DNA from: Amphiscolops sp. MND2022
Taxonomy: Eukaryota
Assembly: GCA_964187785.1 (NCBI GenBank)
Contig: OZ076409.1
Span: 71,984,001 to 72,048,000, forward strand
Length of the DNA: 64,000 nucleotides
Direction: 5' to 3'
The notes under the pieces are model-generated. The model had not been told where the DNA came from. It saw nothing but the letters and a program-made list of their open reading frames with translations, and ran no database searches. Made by a program: the position numbers and the translations under genes. This document shows positions 1 to 23,566 of this stretch, piece after piece (positions within the stretch are counted from its first letter, which is position 1; each line of letters begins with the position of its first letter).

Positions 1-177
1 GATGTCTTCTACTTTTATCATCATGCAAACGACCTTACCATGTCTCTCTTCTGTCGTCATTTGTACAACGCCACATAGCGTTCCGACGCCCACCGTCTGT
101 GGGCATGCCGAGGCATGCCCTTCGACGACGTATGCCAAATGAGCCATACCCGCACTCTGGAGTGCGGTAGCGGCTAG
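1..177 (+). repeat. Partial unit: 3' tail of an L' unit
   Basis: Matches 34124-34300 (end of the L' unit), including the cassette hairpin CCGCACTC-TG-GAGTGCGG; ends at CTAG 174-177. Confidence 0.9.
99..133 (+). promoter_or_regulatory. Invariant 35-bp junction core with 20-bp palindrome / p53-family-like response element (first of 27 copies)
   Basis: GGGCATGCCG (101-110) + AGGCATGCCC (111-120) matches RRRCWWGYYY x2 with 0 spacer and one mismatch. It is also a perfect 9-bp inverted repeat around GA. Unchanged in every copy I read. Function is inferred. Confidence 0.5.
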
Positions 178-208
178 GTGGGCGGGGGTAATTCCCCAAC
201 AAAAAAAT

Positions 209-236
209 CGGCCGGCGGGTCGGGTCCTGCCGGCCG
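209..236 (+). other. 5' subterminal hairpin, A/L form (CGGCCGGCGGG-TCGGGT-CCTGCCGGCCG)
   Basis: 11-bp stem with one G-T pair; variants present at the start of every A and L unit. Confidence 0.75.
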
Positions 237-2413
237 TCCAAAATCAAAATCCTCCTAGTAGAAAACGGCATGTCAAACGAGCTATTTTTTTATTTAACCA
301 TACGAATTTCACCATTTTTTGCATGCGGCCCTGAAATGGCCATACGAGACGAAGTTCCTGCTGACGTTTTGCGATGTAAATGTTTTATAAAAAGTTATGG
401 CCGATTTGTCACTTACCTAGAAGGGCAAAATGAGGAAAATTTTTACAAAGTCGCTGATAACTCAAAATGTGTTAATTTTTGGACTTTGACTGTGAAACAA
501 GCTTGGAACCTTCATTTCGTGGCTGGGGCATTGGACTGAACACAAAAGATGTAAAGTTTTTACGTTTTTTGAAAATTCGACATTTTTGAAATTTTTTTCA
601 CTACTATCAGTACCCCATATGTCAAAAACACCTCAGAAAAAAATTTTTATTTGCTTTAAATGGGAAACCTTGGTATCCATGGTTTCCGTCAGTACCTACT
701 CGCTGCCAAACGCTCAACAGTTTGCATCCAATGTGAAAATATAATTTTTTTCGAGGTCATAGGTGTTTCACAAGGATTTCTCAACTTAGTATCTATTTAC
801 AAATTGGTCATTTTGAACACATTATTTTCATCGAAGCGTGTCAGATACCACCCTAATGCTCACGAATGGGCCTACTGGCAACGTTGGAACCATTTTTAGT
901 AATAGAAAGTATTAAAAAAATATTTTCACCCGGTCTTCAGTCATTTTTCAGACATTCGGTACTTAACTTAGAAAAATTTCGCATCAAAAACCCATATTTG
1001 GTAGGGTCGAAATTTGAAATTCAGTTTTTTATGCAAAATTATTAACTCTGACGTAACCAGTGGAGCCCATGATACTCAAAAACACGATTGGGACTGGTAT
1101 CAGTGGCTCCAATAACATATGAGCCGCGATAAGACGTTATTCAGAGCAAACGCTCTAAATCGAAGTAAACATCTCTGAAGCCTGGGATCACAGTGAAATG
1201 TGATATCACCAAAAGTTTACTCTTTTTTGTCAATCACTATGTACACAGAGTGCGTAGGGTGAGTTTCAGGACTATAATGAGGTTTTTGAAGTAATCGCGC
1301 TGCTCAAGGGGTGGTATGAGACTATTTTTTCCCATATACTACTACATTTCCATAAATTTGCAGTCCATTGTCTTGGAAAGATAACTTCACAAAAACAATT
1401 TTTCTACTCTATTCAGTTATTAGAATAAAGTTGAACACTGTGGTTGATCAGAAATGCTCAATTCTTTTGGTTTTTTAAAAAATTCCTTCGCATTCGTTAC
1501 ATTTGTGGAAGGAAGGTTATCAGTAGCTCCAAAAAAAAACGAAATTTAGCACGAACAGACATGCAACGATGCAAAGCAAAAACGTTTTTACAACTTCCGA
1601 CGTCATTATTTTACCCAAGAAGATTGAAAATATCATTCGCAATGCTGTCATTCGCTATATATACGATCGCGGTCAATTTACAAACATTTAGATTTCATTG
1701 TTCTGCTTGAAAACCAATTTTTGTCAGGTCGAAATTTTAAATTTTGCCTGGGGAGCAATACCCTTCACGCTGAAGTAAACAGTGGGGCCCAAGTTACTCA
1801 AAAACAAGAAAGAGACTGCTACAATATGTCCTAATAACATATGGACCACGATAGTACGCTTTTCACACAAAAAACTCTCATCCGAAGTAAATATGTTGAA
1901 AGCTTTTAATCACCGTGAGAAGTGATTTCATCAAAAAATAACTCTTTTTTGTCAATCACTATTTACACAGAATTTGTAAAGTTAGTTTGAGTCATGAATT
2001 GAGGCTTTACCGTAATATGGGTTGCTCAAGGTGTTATATAAGACAAAAACTTCCTCTTTTCTACTAGCTTCTTCAAATATTTCAACCCTTTGTCACAATA
2101 AGTTAATATTCAAAATATCTTTGAAATGTATCTTTATGTTGGGGTGAAGTCTAAGAACAATAACTATGATCGAAGAATGCTAGTACTGGTGTTTGAACCA
2201 TGTCCGGATGAACAAATCACAAAATCATCAAAAAATTGTTCCCTTTTTTGGTTATTTTGGCAGTACTAAAAATGTTAGCTGATAAATAATTTTTTCGATG
2301 GCACCATTGGATTCCTCTCAAAAAGTTGGTTATATGACCTGTGTAATAACCCCGTATCTTTTCAATTTAAATATATTTAAAAAGCCAACTATTTTGACCA
2401 AAATCCTAAAAAT

Positions 2414-3675
2414 CATACCATTTCCTAAAAATTTTCAAATGCACCCCATTTGACGTATAAGATAAGCACAGAAAACTATCATTTACCGATCAACTCTACT
2501 CCCATTGTAAATTATTAGAATTTTGTTTAGAATGAATTTTGATGGATATTAAAAAAATTTTCAACCCTCCAAAAATGGGCCAAAATTACACGAAAAAATT
2601 GACCTTAAAATACCAAAATGTCAAAAAATCATCAAAACCACGGCTTCTTGGGGTTCTATCAACTCCGCGTGGTCCACAGAGTATGCTAAAACAGGTTTTA
2701 CCCGTTTTTGAGCAATATGTGAAAAAGCCGACATTTTTGGGAAAGAAAAACATACCATTTCCTAAAAAAATTCAAATGCACGTAATTTGCCGTATTAGAA
2801 TAGCACAGAAAACTATCACATACCAATCAACTCTACTTTCATTGCAGATGAACAGAATTTTGTTTAGAATAAATTTTACCGGATAATAAAAAAATTTGAA
2901 TCCTTCAAAAATGGGCCAAAATTACACGAAAAAATGAACCTTAAAAATTTAAAATGTCAAAAAATCATCAAAACAACAGCTTCTTGGGGTTCTATCAACT
3001 CCACGAGGTCCACAGAGTATGCTAAAACAGGTTTTACCCGTTTTTGAGCAATATGTGAAAAAGCCGACATTTTTGAGAAAGAAAAACATACCATTTCCTA
3101 AAAAAATTCAAATGCACGCCATTTGCCGTATGAAAATAGCACAGAAAACTATCACATACCAATCAACTCTACTTTCATTGCAGATGAACAGAATTTTGTT
3201 TAGAATAAATTTTACCGGATAATAAAAAAATTTGATTCCTTCTAAAATGGGCCAAAATTACACGAAAAAATGGACCTTAAAATTTTAAAATGTCAAAAAA
3301 TCATCAAAACCACGGCTTCTTGGGGTTCTATCAACTCCACGTGGTCCACAGAGTATGCTTAACCCGGTTTTACCCATCTTTGAGCAAAATGTGAAAATAC
3401 CGACATTTTTGGAAAAGAAAAAAAACCATTTTCTAATAAATTTCAAATGCACGCCATTTGCTGTATGAGAATAACATAGAAAGCTGTCACATACCGATCA
3501 ACTCTACTTCCATTGTAGATTATCAGAAGTTTGTTTAGAATAAATTTTGATGGATAATAAAAAAAATTGAATCCATCAAAAATGGGCCAAAATTACACGA
3601 AAAAATTGACCTTAAAATATCAAAATGTCAAAAAATCATCAAAACCACAGTTTCGTGGCGTTCTATCAACTCCAT
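2414..3675 (+). repeat. 336-bp central tandem subrepeat, ~3.8 copies (unit 1)
   Basis: ATGGGCCAAAATTACACG at 2575, 2911, 3247, 3582. Confidence 0.92.
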
Positions 3676-3963
3676 ATGATACCAAACCAGGTACTGCCAA
3701 TCGTTTGAGTTATAATAAAAAAACGTCTTTTTTGGCAAGAATTCCATACCATAAATAATAATCATGTTCCATATAAGAAGCGAATCATTTCAGATATATA
3801 CCCTGCTCATTTTTTTAATATTACCGATTATTAATTTAATAGATGTTTTGAATGTGAGCTTCCTAAAAGGTTCAGGTGTGATGATACGTAAATAGAACCT
3901 TAGTTTCATCGAAATCTCAATTGAATATGTCCAATCTTAACCATCAGATAACAAGAAACACTT

Positions 3964-4006
3964 AAGTACATTCCATCTCCCCATCGGGGGAGATGAGAAT
4001 GTACTT
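3964..4006 (+). other. L-class long hairpin (19-bp stem, one bulged A, ATCG loop)
   Basis: AAGTACATTC-CATCTCCCC-ATCG-GGGGAGATG-A-GAATGTACTT; also at 10712-10754, 33326-33368 and 48010-48052. Confidence 0.85.
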
Positions 4007-4937
4007 TCGAGAAGCCAAATACGTCCAACATTCAAACTTTTGTAACTTTGTATGTAACTCCTGAAACGAAGAAGGAATAAAATTGTTTCTGGTACATATA
4101 TGAGTCTTTACTTCAGCTTCTATTTCTGCTGAACAAAACCATTCGACTCTTTTGCCGGAGTTAAGATCGATTGTATTACCCAGTGAACAAAGGCATGACT
4201 GAAAACGTTTACTACTTTGTTCATAATTTTCCGGCCTTCCGAAATGATGAAACGTCCACATAACTAAGATAGCAAGTGAATGACTGCGAAATGCACCTTA
4301 TTAGATGAGGTAAATAACGTGTAAAACTCTCCTTTATCCTAACATGAGGTTGAGTAATGATCATTTGAGAATAGTTTGATATGTGAATACAATAGTATAA
4401 AACAAGTACATTTTATATGAATAACGCCGTGGAAAGCGTTCAGAAAGGACAGTAGGCTTGTTTGGAACATGTATGTGTGGTGTCCCTTGGTGGCGTTCGC
4501 TTAGTGTATATGTCGAGGGGTATTCGAGTTGTTATGATAGAATTTACACACAACTCTTTTGTTTTTTGTTTTTTTTAAATGTCGTTAAGTACCTGCATTC
4601 TATCCCCTTCTCAGAGATGACGTGAAGTTACGTTTGCTAAATAAATGTCATCGAAAGATCACACTCCCGACGAAATTAACTATCTTAACACGTGTTTAGA
4701 ATTTTAAATAAACAACCGTATAAGATTTTTATATTTCATTGAGTTTGATGAAGTCTTTTGTTCTTCTCACTACTATTTCAACCAATACACATATCCGTTA
4801 CCATATCACATGTCTCCATTAGTACAACGCCACATAGCGTTCCGACGCCCACAGTCTGTGGGCATGCCGAGGCATGCCCTTCGACGACGTATGGCAAATG
4901 GAGCCATGCCCGCCGTCTTTACGGCGGTAGCGGCTAG

Positions 4938-6926
4938 GTGGGCGGGGGTAATTCCCCAACAAAAATTACGGCCGGCGGGTTGGGTCCTGCCGGACGTTCA
5001 AATAGCGCGAAGCATCTAGTAGAAAACAAGGAGTCCTGAAACAGCGATTTTAAAATTGAACCGTTAGAATTTGGTTTTAGATTGCATGCGGCCCTAAAAT
5101 CCCCATACGAATGGAAGTTCCTGCTGGCGTTAAGCGATTGAAATAATATATAAAAAGTTATGGCCCATTTTTGGGTCACCGAGAAGGTCAAAATGAAGAA
5201 AATTTTAACTAAGTTGCTGATAACTCAAAATGTGTTAATTTTTGGACTTTGACTGTGAAACAAGCTTGGAACCTTCATTTCGTGTCTGTGGCATTGCACT
5301 GAACACAAAAGATGTAAAGTTTTCACATTTTTTGAAAATTCGACATTTTTGAATTTTTTTTCACTACTATCAGTACACTATATGTCAAAAACACCTCTGA
5401 AAATTTTTTTTTATTGCTTAAATTTAGCAACCTCGGTATCCATGGTTTCCGTCAGTACCTACTCGCTGCCAAACACTCAACAGTTTGCATCCAATGTGAA
5501 AATAAAATTATTTTCGAGGTCTTAGGTGTTTCACAAGGATTTCTCAACTTAGTATCAATTTACAAATTGGTCATTTTGAACACATTATTTTCATCGAAGC
5601 GTGTCATATACCGCCCTAATGCTCACGAACGGGCCTACTGGCAACGTTGGAACCATTTATAGTAATAAAAAGTTTTAAAAAAATTTTTTCACCCCGTCTT
5701 CAGTCATTTTACACACTTTCGGAACTTAACTTAGAAAAATTTCAACCAAAAACCCATTTTTTGTCAAGTCGAAAATTCAACTTCAGCTTTTTAAGCAAAA
5801 TAAATAAATCTGACATAACCAGTGGGGCCCATGAAACTCAAAACCACGATTGAGACTGGTATCAATGGCTCCAATAACATATGAGTCGCGATAAGACGCT
5901 ATTTTGAGCAAAACATCTCAATTGAGGTAAAGATCTCGCAAGCCAGCGATCACTGTGAAATGTGATTTCATCAAAAATTTACTCTTTTTTGTCAATCACT
6001 ATGTGCACAGAATGCGTAGGGTGCGTTTCAGCACTATAATGAGGTTTTTGAAGGCATCGAGTTGCTCAAGGGGTGGTATGAGACATTTTTGTCCCATATA
6101 CTACTGTAGTTTCCAAAAATTTTACCCCAATATCTGGAAATACAAACTTGACAAAATACTTTCAATTACTTTATTCAAAGGTTACAATATAGATGAACAC
6201 TGTGGTTGATAAGAAACTTTCATCTCTTTCGTTTTCGGAAATATTTCCGTTCGCATGTGTTACATTCATAGCAGAAAAAAAAATCGAAACTGAAAAATAT
6301 GCTATTTTGCTGATATAGAATCGCAATGATTGTGCCTAAAAACTCTTTAAACACTTCTAACGCAACCTTACGCACCCAAAATGATCGAAAATGCTATTCA
6401 CAATGGTGACATGTGCTCTTTCTACGATCCTGGCTGGACAAGGTTTGCATATTTTTCAAGTACCTGTCAGCTAAATCTTGTGATAGCCTTTTCAGTTGGC
6501 CTTGTGTCAACTTGGGAAGGCTATCACATCAAAAAACCATCAACAAAAATAATTTTTGTTTATTGGATCTTACAGTCGATACTTTTTTTCGTGATTCTAT
6601 ACTACCGTTAGTATATTTCATCAGGTCACCTTACGATTGCATTCAGTCTTTGATAAAAACCTATGAACTCAAAGTCACATTTATATAGTTTTTTGCCAGA
6701 AAATAACATCAAAAATATCTAAAATATATAAAATAGAGTCTTTAACATTTTTACGTTTCAAGTTTTTGCCGTTATTAGACCAATCAACGTCCTAGAGCCA
6801 CATCCTGCCACATACTGTACAACGCCACATAGTGTTGCGACGTGCACAGTCTGTGGGCATGCCGAGGCATGCCCTTCGACGACGTATGCCGAATACCGCG
6901 GGCCTACGCCCGCGCTCCCCGGCTAG
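4938..6926 (+). repeat. Unit 2, class A (1989 bp)
   Basis: Junction to junction; A interior; ends with CGCGGGC-CTAC-GCCCGCG hairpin + CTAG. Confidence 0.92.
6479..6528 (+). other. A-class long hairpin ~370 bp upstream of the core
   Basis: TGTGATAGCCTTTTCAGTTGGC-CTTGT-GTCAACTTGGGAAGGCTATCACA; ~22-bp stem with G-T pairs and one bulge; present in all A units. Confidence 0.85.
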
Positions 6927-9900
6927 GTGGGCGGGGGTAATTCCCCAACAAAAAAATCGGCCGGCGGGTCGGGTCCTGCCGGCCGTCCAAAATCAAAATC
7001 CTCCTAGTAGAAAACGGCCGGTCAAACGAGCTATTTTTTTATTTAACCGTTAGAATTTGGGTTTAGATTGCATGCGGCCATGAAATGGCCATACGAATGG
7101 AAGTTCCTGCTGACGTTTTGCGATTGAAACACTTTATAAAAAGTTATGGCCAATTTGTCATTCACCTAGAAGGGCAAAATGAGGAAAATTTTAACAAAGT
7201 CGCTGATAACTCAAAATGTAATAATTTTTGGACTTTGACAGTGAAACAAGCTTGGAACTGTCATTTCGTGGCTGTGGCATTGCACTGAACACAAAAGATG
7301 TAAAGTTTTCACATTTTTTGAAAATTCGACATTTTTGAATTTTTTTTCACTACTATCAGTACACTATATGTCAAAAACGCCTCTGAAAAAAATTTTTATT
7401 TGCTTAAAATTAGAAACCTTGGTATCCATGGTTTCCGTCAGTACCTACTCGCTGCCAAACGCTCAACAGTTTGCATCCAATGTGAAAATATAATTTTTTT
7501 CGAGGTCATAGGTGTTTCACAAGGATTTCTCAACTTAGTATCTATTTACAAATTGGTCATTTTGAACACATTATTTTCATCGAAGCGTGTCAGATACCAC
7601 CCTAATGCTCACGAATGGGCCTACTGGCAACGTTGGAACCATTTTTAGCAATAGAAAGTATTAAAAAAATATTTTCACCCGGTCTTCAGTCATTTTTCAG
7701 ACATTCGGTACTTAACTTAGAAAAATTTCGCATCAAAAACCCATATTTGGTAGGGTCGAAATTTGAAATTCAGTTTTTTATGCAAAATTATTAACTCTGA
7801 CGTAACCAGTGGAGCCCATGATACTCAAAAACACGATTGGGACTGGTATCAGTGGCTCCAATAACATATGAGCCGCGATAAGACGTTATTCAGAGCAAAC
7901 GCTCTAAATCGAAGTAAACATCTCTGAAGCCTGGGATCACAGTGAAATGTGATATCACCAAAAGTTTACTCTTTTTTGTCAATCACTATGTACACAGAGT
8001 GCGTAGGGTGAGTTTCAGGACTATAATGAGGTTTTTGAAGTAATCGCGCTGCTCAAGGTGTGGTATGAGACTATTTTTTCCCATATACTACTACATTTCC
8101 ATAAATTTGCAGTCCATTGTCTTGGAAAGATAACTTCACAAAAACAATTTTTCTACTCTATTCAGTTATTAGAATAAAGTTGAACACTGTGGTTGATCAG
8201 AAATGCTCAATTCTTTTGGTTTTTAAAAAAATTCCTTCGCATTCGTTACATTTGTGGAAGGAAGGTTATCAGTAGCTCCAAAAAAACGAAATTTAGCACG
8301 AACAGACATGCAACGATGCAAAGCAAAAACGTTTTTACAACTTCCGACGTCATTATTTTACCCAAGAAGTTCGAAAATATCATTCGCAATGCTGTCATTC
8401 GCTATATATACGATCGCGGTCAATTTACAAACATTTAGATTTCATTGTTCTGCTTGAAAACCAATTTTTGTCAGGTCGAAATTTTAAATTTTGCCTGGGG
8501 AGCAATACCCTTCACGCTGAAGTAAACAGTGGGGCCCAAGTTACTCAAAAACAAGAAAGAGACTGCTACAATATGTCCTAATAACATATGGACCACGATA
8601 TTACGTTTTTCACACAAAAAACTCTCATCCGAAGTAAATATGTTGAAAGCTTTTAATCACCGTGAGAAGTGATTTCATCAAAAAATAACTCTTTTTTGTC
8701 AATCACTGTTTACACAGAATTTGTAAAGTTAGTTTGAGTCATGAAATGAGGCTTTACCGTAATATGGGTTGCTCAAGGTGTTATATAAGACAAAAACTTC
8801 CTCTTTTCTACTAGCTTCTTCAAATATTTCAACCCTTTGTCACAATAAGTTAATATTCAAAATCTCTTTGAAATGTATCTTTATGTTGGGGTGAAGTCTA
8901 AGAACAATAACTATGATCGAAGAATGCTAGTACTGGTGTTTGAACCATGTCCGGATGAACAAATCACAAAATCATCAAAAAAATGTTCCCTTTTTTGGTT
9001 ATTTTGGCAGTACTAAAAATGTTAGCCGATAAATAATTTTTTCGATGGCACCATTGGATTCCTCTCAAAAAGTTGGTTATATGACCTGTGTAATAACCCC
9101 GTATCTTTTCAATTTAAATATATTTAAAAAGCCAACTATTTTGACCAAAATCCTAAAAATCATACCATTTCCTAAAAATTTTCAAATGCACCCCATTTGA
9201 CGTATAAGATAAGCACAGAAAACTATCATATACCGATCAACTCTACTCCTATTGTAGATTATTAGAATTTTGTTTAGAATGAATTTTGATGAATATTAAA
9301 AAAATTTTGAACCCTCCAAAAATGGGCCAAAATTACACGAAAAAATTGACCTTAAAATACCAAAATGTCAAAAAATCATCAAAACCCAGGCTTCTTGGGG
9401 TTCTATCAACTCCGCGTGGTCCACAGAGTATGCTAAAACAGGTTTTACCCGTTTTTGAGCAATATGTGAAAAAACCGACATTTTTGGGAAAGAAAAACGT
9501 ACCATTTCCTAAAAAAATTCAAATGCACGTCATTTGCCGTATTAGAATAGCACAGAAAACTATCACATACCAATCAACTCTACTTTCATTGCAGATGAAC
9601 AGAATTTTGTTTAGAATAAATTTTACCGGATAATAAAAAAATTTGAATACTTCAAAAATGGGCCAAAAATACACGAAAAAATGGACCTTAAAAATTTAAA
9701 ATGTCAAAAAATCATCAAAACAACAGCTTCTTGGGGTTCTATCAACTCCACGAGGTCCACAGAGTATGCTAAAACAGGTTTTACCCGTTTTTGAGCAATA
9801 TGTAAAAAAGCCGACATTTTTGGGAAAGAAAAACATACCATTTCCTAAAAAAATTCAAATGCACGCCATTTGCCGTATGAAAATAGCACAGAAAACTATC

Positions 9901-11686
9901 ACATACCAATCAACTCTACTTTCATTGCAGATGAACAGAATTTTGTTTAGAATAAACTTTACCGGATAATAAAAAAATTTGATTCCTTCTAAAATGGGCC
10001 AAAATTACACGAAAAAATGGACCTTAAAATTTTAAAATGTCAAAAAATCATCAAAACCACGGCTTCTTGGGGTTCTATCAACTCCACGTGGTCCACAGAG
10101 TATGCTTAACCCGGTTTTACCCATCTTTGAGCAAAATGTGAAAATACCGACATTTTTGGAAAAGAAAAACATGCCATTTTCTAATAAATTTCAAATGCAC
10201 GCCATTTGCTGTATGAGAATAACACAGAAAGCTGTCACATACCGATCAACTCTACTTCCATTGTAGATTATCAGAAGTTTGTTTAGAATAAATTTTGAAG
10301 GATAATAAAAAAATTTGAATCCATCAAAAATGGGCCAAAATTACACGAAAAAATTGACCTTAAAATATCAAAATGTCAAAAAATCATCAAAACCACAATT
10401 TCTTGGCGTTCTATCAACTCCATATGATACCAAACCAGGTACTGCCAATCGTTTGAGTTATAATAAAAAAACTTCTTTTTTGGCAAGAATTCCATACCAT
10501 AAATAATAATCATGTTCCACATAAGAAGCGAATCATTTCAGATATATACCCTGTTCATTTTTTTAATATTACCGATTATTAATTTAATAGATGTTTTGAA
10601 TGTGAGCTTCCTAAAAGGTTCAGGTGTGATGATACGTAAATAGAACCTTAGTTTCATCGAAATCTCAATTGAATATGTCCAATCTTAACCATCAGATAAC
10701 AAGAAACACTTAAGTACATTCCATCTCCCCATCGGGGGAGATGAGAATGTACTTTCGAGAAGCCAAATACGTCCAACATTCAAACTTTTGTAAGTTTGTA
10801 TGTAACTCCTGAAACGAAGAAGGAATAAAATTGTTTCTGGTACATACATGAGTCTTTACTTCAGCTTCTATTTCTGCTGAACAAAACCATTCGACTCTTT
10901 TGCCGGAGTTAAGATCGATTGTATTACCCAGTGAACAAAGGCATGACTGAAAACGTTTACTACTTTGTTCATAATTTTCCGGCCTTCCGAAATGATGAAA
11001 CGTCCACATAACTAAGATAGCAAGTGAATGACTGCGAAATGCACCTTATTAGATGAGGTAAATAACGTGTAAAACTCTCCTTTATCCTAACATGAGGTTG
11101 AGTAATGATCATTTGAGAATAGTTTGATATGTGAATACAATAGTATAAAACAAGTACATTTTATATGAATAACGCCGTGGAAAGCGTTCAGAAAGGACAG
11201 TAGGCTTGTTTGGAACATGTATGTGTGGTGTCCCTTGGTGGCGTTCGCTTAGTGTATATGTCGAGGGGTATTCGAGTTGTTATGATAGAATTTACACACA
11301 AGTCTTTTGTTTTTTGGTTTTTTTAAAATGTCGTTAAGTACCTGCATTCTATCCCCTTCTCAGAGATGACGTGAAGTTACGTTTGCTAAATAAATGTCAT
11401 CGAAAGATCACACTCCCGACGAAATTAACTATCTTAACACGTGTTTAGAATTTTAAATAAACAACCGTATAAGATTTTTTTATTTCATTGAGTTTGATGA
11501 AGTCTTTTGTTCTTCTCACTACTATTTCAACCGATACACATATCCGTTACCATATCACATGTCTCCATTAGTACAACGCCACATAGCGTTCCGACGCCCA
11601 CAGTCTGTGGGCATGCCGAGGCATGCCCTTCGACGACGTATGGCAAATGGAGCCATGCCCGCCGTCTTTACGGCGGTAGCGGCTAG
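6927..11686 (+). repeat. Unit 3, class L (4760 bp)
   Basis: Near-identical to unit 1 apart from a different 5' allele; 336-bp subrepeats at ~9161-10423. Confidence 0.92.
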
Positions 11687-13674
11687 GTGGGCGGGGGTAA
11701 TTCCCCAACAAAAATTACGGCCGGCGGGTTGGGTCCTGCCGGACGTTCAAATAGCGCGAAGCATCTAGTAGAAAACAAGGAGTCCTGAAACAGCGATTTT
11801 AAAATTGAACCGTTAGAATTTGGTTTTAGATTGCATGCGGCCCTAAAATCCCCATACGAATGGAAGTTCCTGCTGGCGTTAAGCGATTGAAATAATATAT
11901 AAAAAGTTATGGCCCATTTTTGGGTCACCGAGAAGGTCAAAATGAGGAAAATTTTAACTAAGTTGCTGATAACTCAAAATGTGTTAATTTTTGGACTTTG
12001 ACTGTGAAACAAGCTTGGAACCTTCATTTCGTGGCTGTGGCATTGCACTGAACACAAATGATGTAAAGTTTTCACATTTTTTGAAAATTCGACATTTTTG
12101 AATTTTTTTCACTACTATCAGTACACTATATGTCAAAAACACCTCTGAAAAAATTTTTTATTTGCTTAAAATTGGAAACCTTGGTATCCATGGTTTCTGT
12201 CGGAACCTACTCGCTGCCAAACACCCAACAGTTTGCATCCAATGTGAATTTAAAATTTTTTTCGAGGTCATAAGTGTTTCACAAGGTTTTCATAACTTAG
12301 TATTAAACTACAAACTGGTCATTTTCAACATAATATCTTTGTCGAGGCATGTCGGATATAGTCCTATTGCTCACGAACGGTCCTACTGGCAACGTAATAA
12401 CCATTTATAGAAATGTAAAGTTATAAAAAAAATTTTCACCCGGTCTTCAGTCATTTTTCAGTCATTCGGAACTTAACTTAGAAAAATTTCGACCAAAATA
12501 TCCATTTTTTGTCAGGTCGAAAAATCAAATTCAGATTTTTAAGCAAAATTATTAACTCTGACGTAACCCATGGGGCCCATGATACTCAAAACAACGATTG
12601 ACACTGGTATCAATGGCTCCAATAGCATATGAGTCGCGATAAGACGTTATTTTGAGCATTACGTCTCAATTGAGGTAAAGATCTCGCAAGCCAGTGATCA
12701 CTGTGAAATGTGATTTCATCAAAAATTTACTCTTTTTTGTCAATCACTATGTGCACAGAATGCGTAGGGTGCGTTTCAGCACTATAATGAGGTTTTTGAA
12801 GGCATCGAGTTGCTCAAGGGGTGGTATGAGACATTTTTGTCCCATATACTACTGTATTTTCCAAAATTTTTAGCCCAAAATCTGCAAATACAAACTTGAC
12901 AAAATACTTTCAACTACTTTATTCAAAGGTTACAATATAGATGAACACTGTGGTTGATCAGAAACTTTCATCTCTTTCGTTTTCCGAAATATTTCCCTTC
13001 GCATGTGTAACATTCGTAGCAGAAAAAAAAATCGAAACTGAAAAATACGCAATTTTGCTAGAATAGAAACGCAATGATTGTGCCTAAAAACTCTTTAAAC
13101 ACTTCTAACGCAACCTTACGCACCCAAAATGATCGAATATGCTATTCACAATGGTGACATGTGCTCTTTCTACGATCCTGGCTGGACAAGGTTTGCATAT
13201 TTTTCAAGTACCTGTCAGCTAAATCTTGTGATAGCCTTTTCAGTTGGCCTTGTGTCAACTTGGGAAGGCTATCACATCAAAAAACCATCAACAAAAATAA
13301 TTTTTGTTTATTGGATCTTACAGTCGATACTTTTTTTCGTGATTCTATACTACCATTAGTATATTTCATCAGGTCACCTTACAATTGCATTCAGTCTTTG
13401 ATAAAAACCTATGAACTCAAAGTCACATTTATATATTTTTTTGCCAGAAAATAACATCAAAAATATCTAAAATATATAAAATAGAGTCTTTAACATTTTT
13501 ACGTTTCAAGTTTTTGCCGTTATTAGGCCAATCAACGTCCTAGAGCCACATCCTGCCACATACTGTACAACGCCACATAGTGTTGCGACGTGCACAGTCT
13601 GTGGGCATGCCGAGGCATGCCCTTCGACGACGTATGCCGAATACCGCGGGCCTACGCCCGCGCTCCCCGGCTAG
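11687..13674 (+). repeat. Unit 4, class A (1988 bp)
   Basis: Junction to junction; A interior. Confidence 0.92.
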
Positions 13675-15658
13675 GTGGGCGGGGGTAATTCCCCAACAAA
13701 AATTACGGCCGGCGGGTTGGGTCCTGCCGGACGTTCAAATAGCGCGAAGCATCTAGTAGAAAACAAGGAGTCCTGAAACAGCGATTTTAAAATTGAACCG
13801 TTAGAATTTGGTTTTAGATTGCATGCGGCCCTAAAATCCCCATACGAATGGAAGTTCCTGCTGGCGTTAAGCGATTGAAATAATATATAAAAAGTTATGG
13901 CCCATTTTTGGGTCACCGAGAAGGTCAAAATGAAGAAAATTTTAACTAAGTTGCTGATAACTCAAAATGTGTTAATTTTTGGACTTTGACTGTGAAACAA
14001 GCTTGGAACCTTCATTTCGTGGCTGTGGCATTGCACTGAACACAAAAGATGTAAAGTTTTCACATTTTTTGAAAATTCGACATTTTTGAATTTTTTTTCA
14101 CTACTATCAGTACACTATATGTCAAAAACACCTCTGAAAAATTTTTTGATTTGCTTAAATTTAGAAACCTCGGTATCCATGGTTTCCGTCAGTGCCTACT
14201 CGCTGCCAAACACTCAACAGTTTGCATCCAATGTGAAAATAAAAAATTTTTCGAGGTCTTAGGTGTTTCACAAGGATTACTCAACTTAGTATCAATTTAC
14301 AAATTGGTCATTTTGAACACATTATTTTCATCGAAGCGTGTCATATACCGCCCTAATGCTCACGAACGGGCCTACTGGCAACGTTGGAACCATTTATAGT
14401 AATAAAAAGTTTTAAAAAAATTTTTTCACCCCGTCTTCAGTCATTTTACTCACTTTCGGAACTTAACTTAGAAAAATTTCACCCAAAAACCCATTTTTTG
14501 TCATGTCGAAAATTCAAATTCAGCTTTTTAAGCAAAATAAATAAATCTGACATAACCAGTGGGGCCCATGAAACTCAAAACCACGATTGAGACTGGTATC
14601 AATGGCTCCAATAACATATGAGTCGCGATAAGACGTTATTTTGAGCAAAACATCTCAATTGAGGTAAACATCTCGCAAGCCAGGGATCACTGTGAAAAGT
14701 GATTTAATCAAAATTTTACTCATTTTCGTCAATCACTATGTGCACAAAGTGCGTTGGGTGAATTCCAGCATTATAATTAGGTTTTTGAAGGCATCGGGTT
14801 GCTCAAGGGGTGGTATGAGACATTTTTTTCCGATATACTACTGTATTTTCTTAAGCTTTTAGCCCATTATCTTCAAAAACTAACTTGACAAAAAACTTTC
14901 AATTATTTTATTCAAAGGTTACAATATAGATGAACCCTGTGGTTGATCAGAAACTTTCATCTCTTTCGTTTTCCGAAATAATTTCCTTCACATGTGTTAC
15001 ATTTGTAACATAAAAAAATCCAAAACTAAAAATTACGCTATTTTGCTAATATGGAATCGCAATGATTGTGCCTAAAAACTCTTTAAATACTTCTAACACG
15101 ACCTTGCGGACACAAAATGATTGAAAATGCCATTCACAATGGTGACATGTGCTCTTTCTACGATCCTGACTGAACAAGTTTTGCATTTTGTTCATGTACC
15201 TGTCAATTGAATTTTGTGATAGCCTTTCAAGTTGGCCTTGCGTCAACTTTGGAAGGCTATCACATCAAAAAATTTTCATCAAAAATCTTTTTTGTTTATT
15301 GGATATAACAGTCGATACCTTTTTTTGGTGATTCTATACTACCGTTAGTACCTTCCATTAGGTCACCAGACGATTACATTCTGTCTTTGATAAAAATCTA
15401 TGAACTCAAAGTCATAATTATATATTTTTTGCCCAAAAAACATCAAAAAAATCAAAAATATTTAAAATAGAGTCTTTAACTTTTTTTCGTTTTAACTTTC
15501 TGCCGTTCTTAGGCCAATCAACGTCCTAGAGCCACATCCAGTCATACTGTACAACGCCACATAGTGTTGCGACGTGCACGGTCCGTGGGCATGCCGAGGC
15601 ATGCCCTTCGACGACGTATGCCGAATGCACTGCGGCGACGCCCGCAGTCCAAGGCTAG
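13675..15658 (+). repeat. Unit 5, class A (1984 bp)
   Basis: A interior; ends with ACTGCGG-CGACGC-CCGCAGT hairpin + CTAG. Confidence 0.92.
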
Positions 15659-15691
15659 GTGCGGGGGGGTAACCCCTACAAAGATATTGGA

Positions 15692-15715
15692 GGATTCGGG
15701 TAGGGTCCTGAATCC
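15692..15715 (+). other. 5' subterminal hairpin, B form (GGATTCGGG-TAGGGT-CCTGAATCC)
   Basis: 9-bp stem; loop region and offset from the junction match the A form, while the outer stem sequence differs. Confidence 0.75.
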
Positions 15716-17170
15716 GATCTTAGTACCGCCAGCTATCAGTAGAAAATTTCCCTCAAAAACCGGGATCTCGGGAACTAACCGTAGGATTTGAAAGTTGGAG
15801 CGGCCCCCACCAGATTTTCCCGAATAGATCGCCCCCCACCGGGCTCCATACCCCGGAAAATTTTTTTTTGGCCACACGGGCGACAGTTAGGGGGTCATTT
15901 TAGGGGTAAAATTCATATTGGTCCATATAACTTTTTTCCTGTTGGTTTAAAAGTTTGGGAACCCTGCTAAAGGTTTTTCGACCATGTTGCAAGGGCTCCG
16001 GAGGTGCAAACCAAATTTTTCTATCTTGAAGCTATCTCCAAGTACCCCCCCGCTCAAACCGTTATTTTTCCGGAAACGCAGGTTTTTGACCCGGAAGGAG
16101 TCGTCTGAGCGCGGGGTCGTTAGGTGATGTTTTGGGGACGGCCTTGAGACAAAGTGGGGGACAAGTAGTTTGCCAACCTCAATTCACCCCCCGGACGGGA
16201 AATGACCGTTATATGAGCGTGAAAAATGCCCCCCTCCACGTTTTACCGCTATTTCCGGTGTGAAGGTGTGGGAGTAGCGCGTCGGGTGCCATATATCAAA
16301 AGTAGGTTTAGACAAGGATCTATCAAAAACATGTGGTTTGGGACCCCCTGACCCAACCCGTTAGCGGGAAATGGGGCTTCCGCCTCCTTTTTTTTCGGTT
16401 AAAAACGGAAAATGGGCATTGAGGGGTAAATATCTCGTGAACGCGTGGAGCTACGGTGTCCGTCACTACTACAAGGTTTCATACCCATGATATGGTGCCT
16501 TCAGGGGGGCAAACAGATTACCGCTATCTATCACCGTTACGGACTTGGCCCCCCAGCCCAACCGCTATGTGACCGGAAATGTCACTTTTTGAGCCCAAAG
16601 GGTCGGTCCCAGCCAGGGAACGTTAGGTAACTTTTTGTAGTACTCATTGAGACGAGTTGGGGGACATAGTTTCAGTCACCCCCCGTTACCCCTTGTGACC
16701 GGAAATGACCGTTATGTGGGTAAAATTGGGATTTTTGTACTTTTTGAAGGGCAATTAGGTGCGGAAGGAGTGGTAATAGGTGCTTGGACACTATATGATG
16801 GAATGGAGGACGTGAGGCGAACATTCAGACATAACCGTTATGTTGACCCTAAAGTCCCCCTGGTACCGTAAACGACCGGAAATGGTCAAATTTTGTGTCT
16901 ATTGGGTACAAATGTTTGGTATTTTGTAAATAAAAGTATCTATTAGGTGTTTCGACGGTCTGCAGTAGTGAACATAGTCATGAAACCTTGTGGGGGGTAA
17001 CGGTATATAGCACCGGAAGTCCAAAACGTTAGAGACGGGATAGGTTTTTCCGTTTTAAAATGTCTTTCGGCGTACTTTTGTCAACTAATATGGAATATTT
17101 TTTAAAATTAAAGTTTTTCCATATAGTTTCAGAGACTCCCAAACCTCAAACAACATAACCGTTACCTTAT

Positions 17171-17214
17171 GATAGCCTTTCAAGTTGGCCTGGTGTCAAC
17201 TTGGAAGGGCTATC
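17171..17214 (+). other. B-class long hairpin homologous to the A-class hairpin
   Basis: GATAGCCTTTCAAGTTGGC-CTGGT-GTCAACTTGGAAGGGCTATC; present in all complete B units. Confidence 0.85.
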
Positions 17215-17634
17215 CTTCAAAAATCGTTGATCAAGTGTGTTTTTGGGTATGTTTGAATCATTTTAGAATCAATTAGAGCTTCAAGAAAAATTTGCCAACG
17301 ACAAAAACTATGTCGCGATGATTCCGTTATTAGAGTAATAGTTAACAAAATATTGATTAAGTTGATTTTGTACATTTCAAATGTGTCCTTTATGCCAGAA
17401 AACCTTTTTACCAAACAAATGGTATTGATTGGATTGTATATAACAGGTAATAAAAGTTCAAATTGATTATTACGTTTTATTATGTAAGCTGAAACGTCAT
17501 ATTATAGTTTAATTAACGTCAACGCCACATACTTTACACCAACGCCCACCGTCTGTGGGCATGCCGAGGCATGCCCTTCGACGACGTATACCAAACACCC
17601 TCCATATCTACACCCTAACCGCGGTAGCAGCTAG

Positions 17635-19612
17635 GTGGGCGGGGGTAATTCCCCTTCAAAAAATTCGGCCGGCGGGTTGGGTCCTGCCGGACGTCAAATA
17701 GCAGAAAATACCTATTAGGAAACGGCGACACAAAACGGCGATTTTTAAATCTAACCACAATTTTTTGGACTTGGAGTGCATGCGGCCCTGAAATGCCCAT
17801 ACGAATCGAAGTTCCTGCTGACGTTAAGCGATTGAAATAATATATAAAAAGTTATGGCCCATTTTTGGGTCACCGAGAAGGGCAAAATGAGGAAAATTTT
17901 TACAAAGTCGCTGATAACTCAAAATGTGTTAATTTTTGGACATTGACTGTGAAACAAGCTTGGAACCTTCATTTCGTGGCTGTGGCATTGCACTGAACAC
18001 AAAAGATGTAAAGTTTTTACATTTTTTGAAAATTCGACATTTTTGAGCATCAAACATCAGCACCCCATATGTCAAAAACGCCTCAGAAAAAAATTTTTAT
18101 TTGCTTTAAATTGGAAACCTTGGTATCCATGGTTTCTGTCGGAACCTACTCGCAGCCAAACACCCAACAGTTTGCATCCAATGTGAGAATAAAAATTTTT
18201 TCTGGGTCATAAGCGTTTCACAAGGATTTCTCAACTTAGTATTAATTTACAAAATGGTCATTTTGAACACAAAATTTTCATCGAGGCTTGTCGGCTATAG
18301 GCCTAATGTTCTAGAACGGTCCCACTGGCAACGTAGGAACCATTTATAGTAATTGAAAGTTATAAAATAATTTTTTTCACCCGTTCTTCAGTCATTTTTC
18401 AGACATTCGGAACTTATCTTAGAAAAATTTCGTCTCAAACACCCATTTTTTGACAGGTCGAAAAATCAAATTAGGCTTTTTAAGCACAATTATTAACTCT
18501 GACGTAACCCATGGGGCCCATGATACTCAAAACAACGATTGACACTGGTATCAATGGCTCCAATAACATATGAGTCGCGATAAGACGTTATTTTGAGCAA
18601 TACGTCTCAATTGAGGTAAACATCTCGCAAGCCTGGGATCACAGTGGAATGTAAATTCATCAAAAATTTACTCATTTTTGTCAATTACTATGTGCACAGA
18701 GTGCGTAGGGTGAGTTCCAGCACTATAATGAGGTTTTTGAAGGCATCGGGTTGCTCAAGGGGTGGTATGAGACATTTTTTTTCTATATACTACTGTATTT
18801 TCCAAAACGTTTAGCCCATTATCTCGAAAAACTAACTTGACAAAATACTTTCAATGATTTTATTCAAAGGCTACAATGTAGATGAACCCAGTGGTTGATC
18901 AGAAACTTTCATCTCTTTCGTTTTCCGAAATATTTCCCTTCGCATGTGTTACATTTGTAGCAGAAAAAAAATCGAAACTGAAAAATACGATATTTTGCTA
19001 ATATAGAATCGCAATGATTGTGCCTAAAAACTCTTTAAACACTTCTAACGCGACCTTACGCACCCAAAATGATCAAAAATGCTATTCACAATGGTGACAT
19101 GTGCTCTTTCAACGATCCTGACTGAACAATTTTCGCAAATTATTCAAGTACCTGTTAACTGAATCTCGTGATAGCCTTTTAAGTTGGCCTTGTGTCAACT
19201 TGGGAAGGCTATCACATCAAAAAATTTTCAACAAAAATACTTTTTGTTTATTGGAAATGACAGTCGATATATAATTTCGTGATTCTATACTACCGTTAGT
19301 ACCTTCCATTAAGTCACCTGACGATTGCTTTCAGTCTTTGATAAATACCTATGAACTCGAAGTCTTATTTATAAATTTTTTGCTAAAAATAAACATCAAA
19401 ACTATCCAAATTATTTAAAATTGAGTCTTTACCGTTTTTGTTTTTCTTTTTCTACTGTTATTAGGCTCATCAACTTCCTACAGCCACGCTCTCTGTCATA
19501 CTGTACAACGCCACATAGTGTTGCGACGTGCACGGTCTGTGGGCATGCCGAGGCATGCCCTTCGACGACGTATGCCGAATGCACTGCGGCGACGCCCGCA
19601 GTCCAAGGCTAG
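17635..19612 (+). repeat. Unit 7, class A (1978 bp)
   Basis: Junction to junction; A interior with a small replacement/deletion near 18047-18060. Confidence 0.92.
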
Positions 19613-21583
19613 GTGCGGGGGGGTAACCCCAACAAATATATTGGAGGATTCGGGTAGGGTCCTGAATCCGATTTTAACTCTAATAGCTATCGATAGGAAA
19701 TCTTGCAAAAATTTCGGGATCTCGTGATCTAACCATAGGATTTTAAAGTTGGAGCGGCCCCCACCAGATTTTCCGAAAATTAGCGCCCCCCACCGGTTTC
19801 CATACCCCGGAAAATTTTTTTCTGGCCACACGGGCGACCGTTAGGGGGTCATTTTAGGGGTAAAATTCATATTGGGCCACATAACTTTTTTTCTGTTGAT
19901 TTAAAACTTTGGAACCCTGCTAAAAGTTTCTTGACCGTGTTGCAGGGGCCCCGAAGGTCCAAACCAAATTTTTCTATCTTGAAGCTATCTCCAAGTACCC
20001 CCCCGCTCAAACCGTTATTTTTCCGGAAACGCAGGTTTTTGACCCGGAAGGAGTCGTCTGAGCGCGGGGTCGTTAGGTGATGTATTGGGGACGGCCTTGA
20101 GACGAAGTGGGGGACAAGTAGTTTGCCAACCTCAATTTACCCCCCGGACGGGAAATGACCGTTATATGAGCGTGAAAAATGCCCCCCTCCACGTTTTACC
20201 GCTATTTCCGGTGTGAAGGAGTGGGAGTAGCGCGTCGGGTGTTATATAACAAAAGTAGGTTTAGACAAGGACCTATCGGAAACATGTAGTTTGGGACCCC
20301 CTGGACCAACCCGTTAGCGGGAAATGGGGCTTCCGCCTCCTTTTTTTAGTGCTAAAACCGTAAAATGGGCATTGAGGGGTAAATATCTCGTGAACGCGTG
20401 GAGCAATCGTGTCCATCACTACTACAAGGTTTCATACCCATGATATGGTGCCTTCAGGGGGGCAAACAGATTTCCGCTATCTATCACCGTTACCGACTTG
20501 TCCCCCCAGCCTAACCGCTATGTGACCGGAAATGTCACTTTTTGAGCCCAAAGGGTCGGACCCAGCCTGGGAACGTTAGGTAACTTATTGTAGTACTCAA
20601 TGAGACGAGTTGGGGGATATAGTTTCAGTCAACCCCCGTTACCCCTTGGGACCGGAAATGACCGTTATGTGGGTAAATTTGCAATTTTTATACTTTTTCA
20701 AGTGTATTTAGGTGCGGAAGGAGTGGTAATAGGTGCTTGGACACTATATGAGGTAAGGGAGGACGTGAGGCGAGCATTCGGAAATAACCGTTATGTTGAC
20801 CCTAAAGTCCCCCTAGTACCGTAAACGACCGGAAATGGTCAAATTTTGTGTCTATTGGGTACAAATGTTTTGTATTTTGTAGATAAAAGTATCTATTAGG
20901 TGTTTCGACGGTCTACAGTAGTGAACATAGTCATGAAACCTTGTGGGGGGTAACGGTATATAGCACCGGAAGTCAAACCGTTGGAGACAGGATAGGTTTT
21001 TTGGTTTTAAAATGTCTTTCGGCGTAATTTTTTCGACTCTTGTGGACTATTTTTAAAAATTAACGTTTTTCCATATAGTTTCAGAGACTCCGAAACCTCA
21101 ACCAACATAACCGTTACCTTATGATAGCCTTTCAAGTTGGCCTGGTGTCAACTTGGAAGCGCTATCCTTCTGAAATCGTTAATCAAGAGTGTTTTTGGGT
21201 AGGTATATATTGCATTAGTACCAATTAGAGCTTCATCAACAGTGTACCAACGACAAAAACTATGCCGTCATGATTCCGTTATTAGAATCATAGTGAGCAA
21301 ATTGTTGAAAAAAATGGTTTTTTCCATACAAAATGTGTCCTAAATGCCAGGAAACCTATTTACCTAACAAATGGTATTAATTGGAATGTTTGTAACAGAT
21401 TTATAAAAGTTCAAATTGAATATTACATTTCATTTTGGAAGCTGAAACGTCATATTTTAGTTTAATTAACGTCAACGCCACACACTTTACATCAACGCAC
21501 ACCGTCTGTGGGCATGCCGAGGCATGCCCTTCGACGACGTATGACAAATCCTTATCAAACGACGCCCGTACATCCCGGGCTAG
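19613..21583 (+). repeat. Unit 8, class B (1971 bp)
   Basis: B interior; ends GCCCG-TACATCC-CGGGC-TAG. Confidence 0.92.
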
Positions 21584-23566
21584 GTGGGCGGGGGTAATTC
21601 CCCTTCAAAAAATTCGGCCGGCGGGTTGGGTCCTGCCGGACGTCAAATAGCAGAAAATACCTATTAGGAAACGGCGACACAAAACGGCGATTTTTAAATC
21701 TAACCACAATTTTTTGGACTTGGAGTGCATGCGGCCCTGAAATGCCCATACGAATCGAAGTTCCTGCTGACGTTAAGCGATTGAAATAATATATAAAAAG
21801 TTATGGCCCATTTTTGGGTCACCGAGAAGGGCAAAATGAGGAAAATTTTAACTAAGTCGCTGATAACTCAAAATGTGTTAATTTTTGGACATTGACTGTG
21901 AAACAAGCTTGGAACCTTCATTTCGTGGCTGTGGCATTGCACTGAACACAAAAGATGTAAAGTTTTTACATTTTTTGAAAATTCGACTTATTTGAAATTT
22001 TTTTCACTACTATCAGTACCCCATATGTCAAAAACGCCTCAAAAAAAAATTTTATTTGCTTTAAATTGGAAACCTTGGTATCCATGGTTTCTGTCGGAAC
22101 CTACTCGCAGCCAAACACCCAACAGTTTGCATCCAATGTGAAAATAAAAATTTTTTCGGGGTCATAAGCGTTTCACAAGGATTTCTCAACTTAGTATTAA
22201 TTTACAAAATGGTCATTTTGAACATAATATTTTCATCGAGGCTTGTCGGCTATAGCCTTAAAGTTCTAGAACGGTCCCACTGGCAACGTAGCAACCATTT
22301 ATAGTAATATAAAAGGTTAAAAATTTTTTTCACCCGGTCTTCAGTCATTTTTCAGTCATTCGGAACTTAACTTAGAAAAATTTCGACCAAAATACCCATT
22401 TTTTGTCAGGTCGAAAATTCAAATTCAGATTTTTAAACAAAATTATTAACTCTGACGTAACCCATGGGGCCTATGATTTTCAAAACAACGATTGACACTG
22501 GTATCAATGGCTCCAATAACATATGAGTCGCGATAAGACGTTTTTTTGAGCAATACGTCTCAATTGAGGTAAAGATCTCGCAAGCCAGCGATCACTGTGA
22601 AATGCGATTTCATCAAAAATTTACTCATTTTTGTCAATCACTATGTGCACAGAATGCGTAGGGTGCGTTTCAGCACTATAATGAGGTTTTTGAATGCATC
22701 GAGTTGCTCAAGGGGTGGTATGAGACATTTTTGTCCCATATACTACTGTATTTTCCAAAATTTTTAGCCCAATATCTGGAAATACAAACTTGACAAAATA
22801 CTTTCAACTACTTTATTCAAAGGTTACAATATAGATGAACACTGTGGTTGATCAGAAACTTTCATCTCTTTCGTTTTCCGAAATATTTCCCTTCGCATGT
22901 GTTATATTTGAAGCAGAAAAAAAATCGAAACTGAAAAATACGCTATTTTGCTAATATAGAATCGCAATGATTGTGCCTAAAAACTCTTTAAACACTTCTA
23001 ACGCGACCTTACGCACCCAAAACGATCGAAAATGCTATTCACAATGGTGACATGTGCTCTTTCTACGATCCTGGCTGGACAAGGTTTGCATATTTTTCAA
23101 GTACCTGTCAGCTGAATCTTGTGATAGCCTTTTAAGTTGGCCTTGTGTCAACTTGGGAAGGCTATCACATCAAACAACCATCAACAAAAATAATTTTTGT
23201 TCATTGGATATTACAGTTGATACCTTTTTTCGTGATTCTATACTACCGTTAGTATATTCCATGAGGTCACCTTACGATTGCATTCAGACTTTGATAAAAA
23301 CCTATGAACTCAAAGTCACATTTATATATTTTTTGCCCAAAAAAAATCATCAAAAACATCTAAAACATCTAAAATAGAGTCTTTAACGTTTTTACGTTTC
23401 AAGTTTTTGCCGTTATTAGGCTCATCAACTTCCTACAGCCACGCTCTCTGTCATTAGTACAACGCCACATAGTGTTGCGACGTGCACGGTCTGTGGGCAT
23501 GCCGAGGCATGCCCTTCGACGACGTATGCCGAATACCGCGGGCCTACGCCCGCGCTCCCCGGCTAG
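21584..23566 (+). repeat. Unit 9, class A (1983 bp)
   Basis: Junction to junction; A interior. Confidence 0.92.

Follow-up and report, generated by a model that had tools for sequence, protein, structure and literature searches.

We consider it quite probable that the variable cassette described here is the last stretch before CTAG of Helitron-like units that stand in head-to-tail trains with elements encoding a Rep, a helicase, and a GIY-YIG domain, and that the encoded protein peels off single units and re-inserts them preferentially at an existing joint. The larger object of interest is this mixed, junction-built train.

The cassette belongs to the 3′ end of the upstream unit

The window, i.e., the whole stretch of DNA that was analyzed, comprises 64,000 nt of the plus strand of C1 in a genome of 1.07 Gb, and all of it (1..64000, +) is part of one train in a single orientation. 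CGACGACGTAT occurs 27 times within the window (0.4 expected) and is followed in all 27 copies by a segment of 34 to 40 nt and then by GCTAGGTG. The segments comprise 14 distinct, alignable homologous sequences, which fall into two length groups. When the window is cut at CTAG|GTG, 27 junctions and 26 complete noncoding units result, namely, 13 A units (about 1,985 bp), 9 B units (1,971 to 1,994 bp), and 4 L units (about 4,760 bp). The segment belongs with the upstream unit, and the bases after GTG belong with the downstream unit. The cassette is therefore part of the end of the unit, which runs from a palindrome through a conserved block and the variable 18 to 48 nt to CTAG. The original prediction of a hypervariable 34- to 40-nt cassette between two invariant blocks holds for 27 of 27 copies with 14 sequences, but the blocks do not form one scaffold, the element boundary being inside the second block at CTAG|GTG. 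The cassette thus occupies the 18 to 48 nt that precede CTAG at the 3′ terminus of nonautonomous Helitron-like units, and GTG opens the following unit.

The first junction of the window, on the plus strand, illustrates this arrangement. The invariant 20-nt palindrome of the 3′ end, or core, lies at 101..120 and is a candidate terminator or Rep-binding hairpin, as suggested by its sequence, fold, and pair exchange. The conserved block that follows (121..133) has 27 exact copies in the window. The cassette at 134..173 is the subfamily-specific terminal segment of an L-type unit of 4.77 kb whose start lies before position 1, and it holds a 7-bp stem with a 4-nt loop (150..167) that ends 6 nt before CTAG and is found in only some A- and L-type units. 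CTAG (174..177) makes up the last four bases of the unit, with the join, and presumably the nick site, between 177 and 178. The 5′ end of the next unit (178..236) starts with GTG and carries a hairpin at 209-236 around a conserved G-rich motif, some 40 nt into the unit.

This next unit is a nonautonomous L unit of 4,760 bp (178..4937, +) with an internal 336-bp tandem repeat, and further L units lie at 6927-11686, 29531-34300, and 44224-48984 on the same strand. An A unit of about 1,985 bp is found at 4938..6926 (+; 13 complete copies in the window) and a B unit at 15659..17634 (+; 9 complete copies, 1,971 to 1,994 bp). Outside the core and a single 58-bp palindrome, the B body cannot be aligned to A. 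The open reading frames of the window amount to 71 stop-to-stop frames of 90 to 193 aa.

The 336-bp repeat is present in about four copies inside the L units (2409-3674, 9156-10422, 31760-33096, and 46454-47720), and B units have a 170-bp internal repeat, 503 bp apart. All 26 complete units of the window also contain one long imperfect internal palindrome about 250 to 950 nt before the end. It is of two unrelated types, M1 (∼3966-4010) in L units and M2 (∼6482-6530) in A and B units, so that these types are common to unit classes that are otherwise unalignable. M1 and M2 were not found in the autonomous elements tested, and no obvious long hairpins of this kind were seen near the 3′ ends of 18 autonomous elements. 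They are candidates for a second-strand origin or a hairpin RNA.

Trains across the genome

The core 15-mer has 4,006 copies in the genome, and in 3,854 of them CTAGGTG, the start of another unit, follows within 20 to 44 nt; 40 copies end in SCTAG plus A, C, or T. The head pattern has 4,143 matches in the genome versus 4 in the control. A recognized tail and head were present at 267 of 274 sampled junctions, and the terminal tetranucleotide was CTAG in 265 and CTGG in 9 of the 274, which fits a 3′ CTRR. The GTG start was observed at 274 of 274 junctions, which is partly by search design, and in 14 of 15 host-flanked heads.

Units follow each other with little space between them, as 92 units tile 178,824 bp of one 180,000-bp block. 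The array that contains the window starts after a host CTAG near C1:70.455 Mb, and the most distal junction seen lies at 76.485 Mb; of this presumably continuous train of about 6 Mb, roughly one-tenth was sampled. Further arrays are present on C1, C2, C3, C6, C8, and C10. The trains mix nonautonomous units (1 to 4.8 kb) with 12- to 15.6-kb Rep-helicase-GIY-YIG elements of several divergent families, all in one orientation. Two-unit and short trains between host flanks also occur (L198 and L008/009), and at array edges the similarity to host DNA stops at CTAG.

Megabase-scale clusters at C2:102.0-103.9 Mb and C3:2.3-3.9 Mb each have blocks on both strands, the former being near a contig end. 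Zoning is visible in the array at C1:70.45-76.49 Mb, with one L-type cassette at 71.4-72.7 and 73.2-73.4 Mb and a family encoding a 2,376-aa protein from 73.5 Mb. The size classes of nonautonomous units are tight (about 1.07, 1.28, 1.39, 1.98, 2.18, and 4.76 kb), possibly reflecting a size constraint on circles. The 1.28-kb types have common ancestry at 65 to 85% identity, and A and B are equal in length without alignable bodies.

Autonomous elements in the same trains

A search with the Helitron Rep family revealed, close to the window, a cluster of frames of about 2,375 aa. These frames belong to autonomous elements of 12 to 15.6 kb that stand in the same trains, joined at the same CTAG|GTG; transposase frames measure 2,200 to 2,600 aa, and many of them are intact. 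The array at C1:70.45-76.49 Mb holds 35 Rep matches, 29 to 89% identical to the query and all on the plus strand. The main protein matches Rep (PF14214) and Pif1 (PF05970) above cutoff, and H-x-H and Y-x-x-[KS]-Y motifs (HUH, Y2 type) are found in 13 of 13 array proteins. The predicted protein is thus that of a Helitron-like element, an HUH Rep with a Y2-type motif fused to a Pif1 helicase. A C-terminal GIY-YIG match in Pfam scores 21.1 bits versus the curated cutoff of 22.6, and the solved relatives of this region at E < 1 are only SLX1 and UPF0213 proteins (weak, E 0.03 to 0.6). GIY-YIG was not seen in the partial open reading frame of a second family. Across the divergent families, 12 of 13 elements examined end with the core and a terminal segment of their own. 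The bodies of the A, B, and L units of the window match the tested autonomous elements only in short pieces at 67 to 72% identity, so that partnership between the two is at most tentative.

Behind one transposase (L031:4360-5028 and 2221-3390, minus strand), Atlas leads point to a GDSL/SGNH-hydrolase-like frame and an OB-fold single-strand-binder-like frame, neither of which has a Pfam match. In one family (L081/082 and L083/084), copies on several contigs have the transposase interrupted at one common position, giving frames of about 1,690 and 592 aa, possibly through programmed readthrough, a frameshift, or an intron. Five autonomous elements (L036, L035, L045, L049, and L031) contain a similar repeated insert in the opposite orientation, with CTAGGTG at one point.

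A protein search returned 58 matches, 42 of them at 23 to 39% identity and many with GIY-YIG; some database relatives have an OTU domain. A quick tree built for the Rep region from in-genome and database proteins, with no published references and with 13 close database matches left out, placed 13 array proteins and 45 database proteins on one long branch apart from nine other in-genome Helitron proteins. The array clade had an SH-aLRT of 100, and its sisters were two HLE1-like proteins of this genome (support 87), a placement that carries a long-branch warning. DUF6570, the HLE2 marker, was absent from the 2 array proteins and 7 relatives scanned, and 6 of the 7 further Helitron proteins of this genome that were scanned have it. 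Comparison of the last 40 nt with the first 20 nt for terminal inverted repeats gave a longest match of 7 nt in 59 combinations, with no excess over cross pairs.

Among 33 metagenomic loci, found by searching with an alignment of distant relatives, three show this head motif within a hairpin. In two near-identical loci the motif is upstream of the gene, and in the third it follows the second gene, 45 nt downstream of CTAG|TT, where the head of a next unit would be expected; these three loci therefore count as two independent cases. The marine metagenomic relatives with the head hairpin motif are about 26% identical, and the combination of head motif and CTAG|TT joint suggests that the habit may be clade-wide.

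The target site

Fifteen host-side heads were used to define the target, 11 of which were obtained from 33 edge loci retrieved together with 10 kb of sequence; heads that follow tails of other unit families were left out. Their left flanks are CTAG in seven cases, CTTG in five, CTCG in two, and GTCC in one, i.e., CTNG in 14 of 15. The left flank is unlike the terminal CTAG in 8 of 15, which points to insertion without target-site duplication; the seven CTAG flanks could be remnants of older ends. At the other end, the base at +2 after the terminal CTAG is T in 29 of 30 loci and in 25 of 26 after dropping four non-host edges, in a count where the search pattern did not admit G at the first position. 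No head was found within 10 kb at 21 of 33 right-edge loci, and one other locus continued as a train.

Taken together, the left flanks and the T at +2 indicate a target CTNG|NT that would be used without duplication, and this target matches the joint CTAG|GT. With a left flank ending in G in 14 of 15 cases and a right flank N-T, it is neither A|T nor T|T, where HLE1 and HLE2, respectively, are described to insert (PMC11417382). CTTG, GTTC, GTCC, and CTCG are given as targets of the IS91 family (10.1101/2025.01.24.634351). The array elements therefore appear to work like a Helitron with IS91-like target choice, their ends and target differing from those of HLE1 and their marker and target from those of HLE2.

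How trains are built

Units that are at least 99% identical have a downstream neighbor in common in 1 of 20 pairs and an upstream neighbor in 1 of 21, and such identity between direct neighbors was seen in just 2 of 205 adjacent pairs. The rarity of near-identical units that are adjacent or have the same neighbors indicates that units move singly, and on these data we reject both concatemer formation and segmental duplication as the main source of the trains. Same-type neighbors are nevertheless in excess (76 of 205 versus 48 by local shuffling), which suggests that some local duplication or family matching adds to this; the tail-to-next-head information is 1.91 versus 1.29 shuffled.

The use of the joint is near-exclusive. 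There are 1,175 internal CTNG.NT sites, on average 4.9 per unit versus one joint, and equal use of all sites would put about five in six insertions inside units. Only five extra internal heads were found in 239 units, three of which follow a tail with a variant joint, one of which resembles a deletion fusion, and one of which is a clean internal insertion. The simplest reading would be that the enzyme prefers the joint, where both hairpins flank the nick site. The precise cleavage by Helraiser of its own head-to-tail junction in vitro (PMC5876387) makes such a preference plausible, although loss of interrupted units could mimic it.

We propose that Rep would nick after CTNG in CTNG|NT, as IS91 does at its tetranucleotide, and that the helicase would displace the strand until the invariant palindrome, 35 to 60 nt before the end, pauses the enzyme and the cut is made after CTAG. 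A circle would then form and join a new CTNG|NT site; in assemblies, circle joints look identical to array joints. The joint would be a CTNG|NT site flanked by both recognized hairpins, and could for this reason outcompete bare sites and make trains grow in one orientation. Junction-targeted rolling-circle insertion would be the likely mechanism.

Trains could alternatively result from recombination between shared junction sequences, or from purging elsewhere, instead of Rep targeting. Units are indeed mosaic in blocks, one block of three units occurs in duplicate, many dispersed copies are truncated, and the excess of same-type neighbors would also fit. This origin is nevertheless improbable: the heads and tails of different families have only 7 to 8 nt in common at the joint, which is precisely where one unit type gives way to another. 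Near-identical units almost never have the same neighbors, two-unit and short trains occur between host flanks, and internal array sites are almost unused, though insertion there should cost the host little. Insertion targeted to the joint remains the reading that we follow.

Fixed structures at the ends of the units

The core palindrome region (88-133) has a fold z score of −3.25. Of 197 copies, 171 have G-C as the outer pair of the palindrome, 24 have A-T, and 2 have a mismatch; the switch from G-C to A-T may be one single event. In the conserved block, the last 4 to 5 nt vary in 28 of 197 copies. Of 13 autonomous elements examined, 12 carry the core palindrome at their 3′ end. The head hairpin (178..236 region) has a z score of −4.84, and the G-rich head motif is present in 33 of 34 head types, 35 to 58 nt from the start and mostly within the stem. 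The stems around the motif differ in sequence between types, and 11 of 33 individually beat shuffles.

The conserved structures that units share are therefore the palindrome and the 5′ hairpin, not the cassette. The invariant palindrome upstream of the cassette would be a better terminator candidate than the cassette hairpin. It is not the sole possible terminator, since the autonomous family with the 2,376-aa protein and its 1.28-kb partners have ends without it.

Hairpins and variability of the cassette

The cassette was surveyed in all fetched loci, which gave 250 copies and 123 distinct segments, where overlapping fetches may double-count a few copies. The hairpins noticed originally in the L′, L, and A types are present in the window segments, and their placement 6 to 8 nt before CTAG in A and L was confirmed, given that all stems of at least 6 bp in all fetched loci end 6 or 8 nt before CTAG. 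Perfect stems of at least 7 bp occur in 10 of the 123 distinct segments, versus a shuffled mean of 0.8 and maximum of 3, and the 7-bp perfect stems have five different sequences, all ending at these two distances. The hairpin GCCCG-TACATCC-CGGGC proposed for B, on the other hand, was no better than shuffles (61 of 200 as good). Nine window segments were folded, of which four beat shuffles (1 to 8 of 200 shuffles equally good) and a fifth, of A type, did not (25 of 200 as good). Among 105 distinct segments, 15 folded with P ≤ 0.05. As a general feature, the hairpin did not survive: it is present in 39 and absent in 211 of 250 copies, and it is missing also in near-identical young units and in host-flanked copies with precise CTAG ends.

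Covariation was scored over the 14 window types, with 46.5% of cells paired. The covariation score was matched by 22 of 500 shuffles, and slid controls were equally high; two pairs showed double changes, for which 302 of 500 shuffles were equally high. Covariation across the window segment types is marginal.

The cassette hairpin could still be a selected termination signal, at least in the A and L lineages. Five different 7-bp stems at a fixed 6 or 8 nt, in 10 of 123 segments versus 0.8 expected, speak for selection, as does the stem of the same type in one autonomous element (L087/88). In Helraiser, the palindrome of the terminator is 11 nt before the end, the same geometry as in the A and L cassettes, and a stem swap kept about 90% of activity (PMC4778049). 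This role is nonetheless rather unlikely, because the hairpin is missing in 211 of 250 copies, in most autonomous elements, and in the precisely ended host-flanked copies L116, L120, L138, and L140, and because covariation is marginal. Furthermore, template switching in rolling-circle replication can regenerate palindromes without selection, as reported for a circovirus origin (PMC2690592). The idea of a rolling-circle termination signal was right in placing the cassette at the 3′ end of a rolling-circle element, but the hairpin itself is missing from most copies.

The cassette was also expected to be far more variable than its neighbors. This is the case in class B, where its diversity is 0.37 versus a body median of 0.08 and is the top window of all. 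In class A it is partly so (0.19 versus a body median of 0.08, with one body window reaching 0.28), but it is not so in class L (0.125 versus 0.113 in the body) or in two 1.3-kb classes (0.07 versus 0.08 and 0.25 versus 0.28). Diversity in the core is 0.003 to 0.03, and the strong contrast is that between cassette and core. The cassette would mainly be a loosely constrained, subfamily-specific spacer between the palindrome and the cut, with an extra Helitron-style hairpin in some A and L lineages.

A double end was observed at L157:5347-5383 (C1:71.888 Mb), where a complete tail and the last 32 nt of another tail precede the next head, and in L043/044 the end is extended beyond CTAG. Double or extended ends are a possible route to new cassettes.

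Guide and identity-tag functions

A guide role had also been suggested, with the cassette as the variable part of an otherwise constant scaffold, taken here to be RNA. Its constant flanks, the 123 distinct segments, and the SLX1-like nuclease domain of the partner protein (E 0.03 to 0.6) would suit a guide, which we nevertheless regard as extremely improbable. The downstream "scaffold" is part of the next, arbitrary element, and the segments recur as alignable homologues inherited with the unit type. The five Rfam matches in positions 1-22,000 of the window all have E > 1 and lie below gathering scores, which is nothing above chance. The searches for targets that were proposed for this idea spoke against it, as 91 of 91 exact copies of a cassette 19-mer (139-157) in the genome are attached to the core, and three cassettes had no exact match in viral contigs. 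The core pattern likewise had no match in viral contigs.

The cassette could instead be an identity tag for the cognate Rep, through which each family mobilizes its own dependents. Autonomous families differ in the segment, related segments occur in nonautonomous units of the same head type, and the head-tail information within units is 3.03 versus 1.26 bits shuffled. Common descent, however, accounts for this linkage, and up to eight tail types occur per head type. No pairing was seen between the tail and its own first 12 to 35 nt (P of 0.06 to 0.8). With head positions 20-70 there was a weak excess (5.5 versus 5.1 nt, unadjusted P of 0.002), for pairs that are not independent and as the only positive of 22 tests. 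We thus take an identity tag to be unlikely and retain the spacer as the reading of the cassette. Pairing of the cassette with the 5′ end of its own unit, which would place the nick in a loop, was also rejected, the joining gain being worse for own pairs (22 tests).

Relation to known systems

The transposase of IS91 is not known to carry a fused helicase. As in IS91, the target is a tetranucleotide like that of terminal cleavage (CTTG, CTCG, and GTCC are also found here), subterminal palindromes are present at both ends, and there is no duplication (10.1101/2025.01.24.634351). IS91 is, however, bacterial and Rep-only, whereas the array protein is a Rep-helicase of 2,200 to 2,600 aa in a eukaryote, and head-to-tail trains are not described for IS91 in the accessible part of that source. 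Replitrons differ in that their Rep is described without the helicase (PMC10288648) that the array protein has.

The array elements resemble HLE1 Helitrons such as Helraiser in their HUH Rep and Pif1 helicase, 3′ CTAG, lack of target duplication, head-to-tail junctions, nonautonomous partners, and likely downstream OB-fold gene (PMC4778049, PMC5876387, PMC11417382). Compared with HLE1 as presented in these reports, they start with GTG and not TC, target CTNG|NT and not A|T, and have a hairpin 35 to 60 nt from the end, a 5′ hairpin, and a C-terminal GIY-YIG. Just 39 of 250 copies show the HLE1-type hairpin about 10 to 12 nt from the terminus. The array Rep also stands on a long branch apart from the in-genome HLE1-like proteins.

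Hairpins at both ends are a likeness to HLE2 (Helitron2, Helentron, and FoHeli1/2) that holds for the core-bearing array families and not for the family with the 2,376-aa protein (PMC5148889, PMC11417382). In Fusarium, FoHeli1/2 have a 3′ hairpin 38 to 51 bp from the terminus, and self-insertions are described, as occasional nested events and not trains; capture of GIY-YIG is reported for one moss HLE2 family (PMC5148889, PMC11417382). The OTU domain of some database relatives is a further likeness to HLE2. Unlike HLE2 as presented in these sources, the array elements lack DUF6570 and the apurinic endonuclease and do not target T|T. A 12- to 16-nt terminal inverted repeat was not found between their last 40 and first 20 nt.

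Tandem Helitron arrays in plants and bats and the telomere-targeted Helitrons of Paramecium are similar in forming arrays or clusters, with orientation bias and target preference (PMC5876387, PMC5148889, PMC11934779, PMC13085455). In plants, the arrays have been explained as rolling-circle concatemers of one element, whereas neighbors here are mostly different units. The Paramecium elements are described as a third clade (PMC13085455); they target telomeric repeats and not their own joints. In the full-text literature searched, neither junction-targeted mixed Helitron trains nor the array clade was described; most subscription journals, Repbase reports, and the unclassified clusters of the HELIANO supplements lay outside its scope.

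The HeT-A, TART, and TAHRE elements of Drosophila are retrotransposons added at chromosome ends. Their telomeric arrays are alike in being mixed head-to-tail trains in one orientation with several autonomous and nonautonomous families (PMC11934779), while the trains described here consist of DNA elements at interstitial sites.

The chances appear evenly balanced that the array elements form an undescribed clade apart from HLE1 and HLE2, with IS91-like tetranucleotide targeting, an SLX1-like nuclease, and their own joint as a shared docking site. Families with as little as 30% identity would then, with dozens of unit types, build a communal multi-megabase array in one orientation, as an integron-like safe harbor.

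Implications

The cassette itself is of lesser weight, as it marks the free versus the fixed parts of the end. Target choice and joining by Helitrons are poorly understood, and the literature cited here reports experiments on only one reconstructed element. One genome here offers many intact transposase frames, a sharp joint, and thousands of natural end variants, which makes target choice and termination directly testable. A sequence-directed, duplication-free eukaryotic integrase would also be of interest as a tool. If it is true that a DNA transposon docks at its own joints, this would be a new route to megabase chromosome domains and an escape from host cost.
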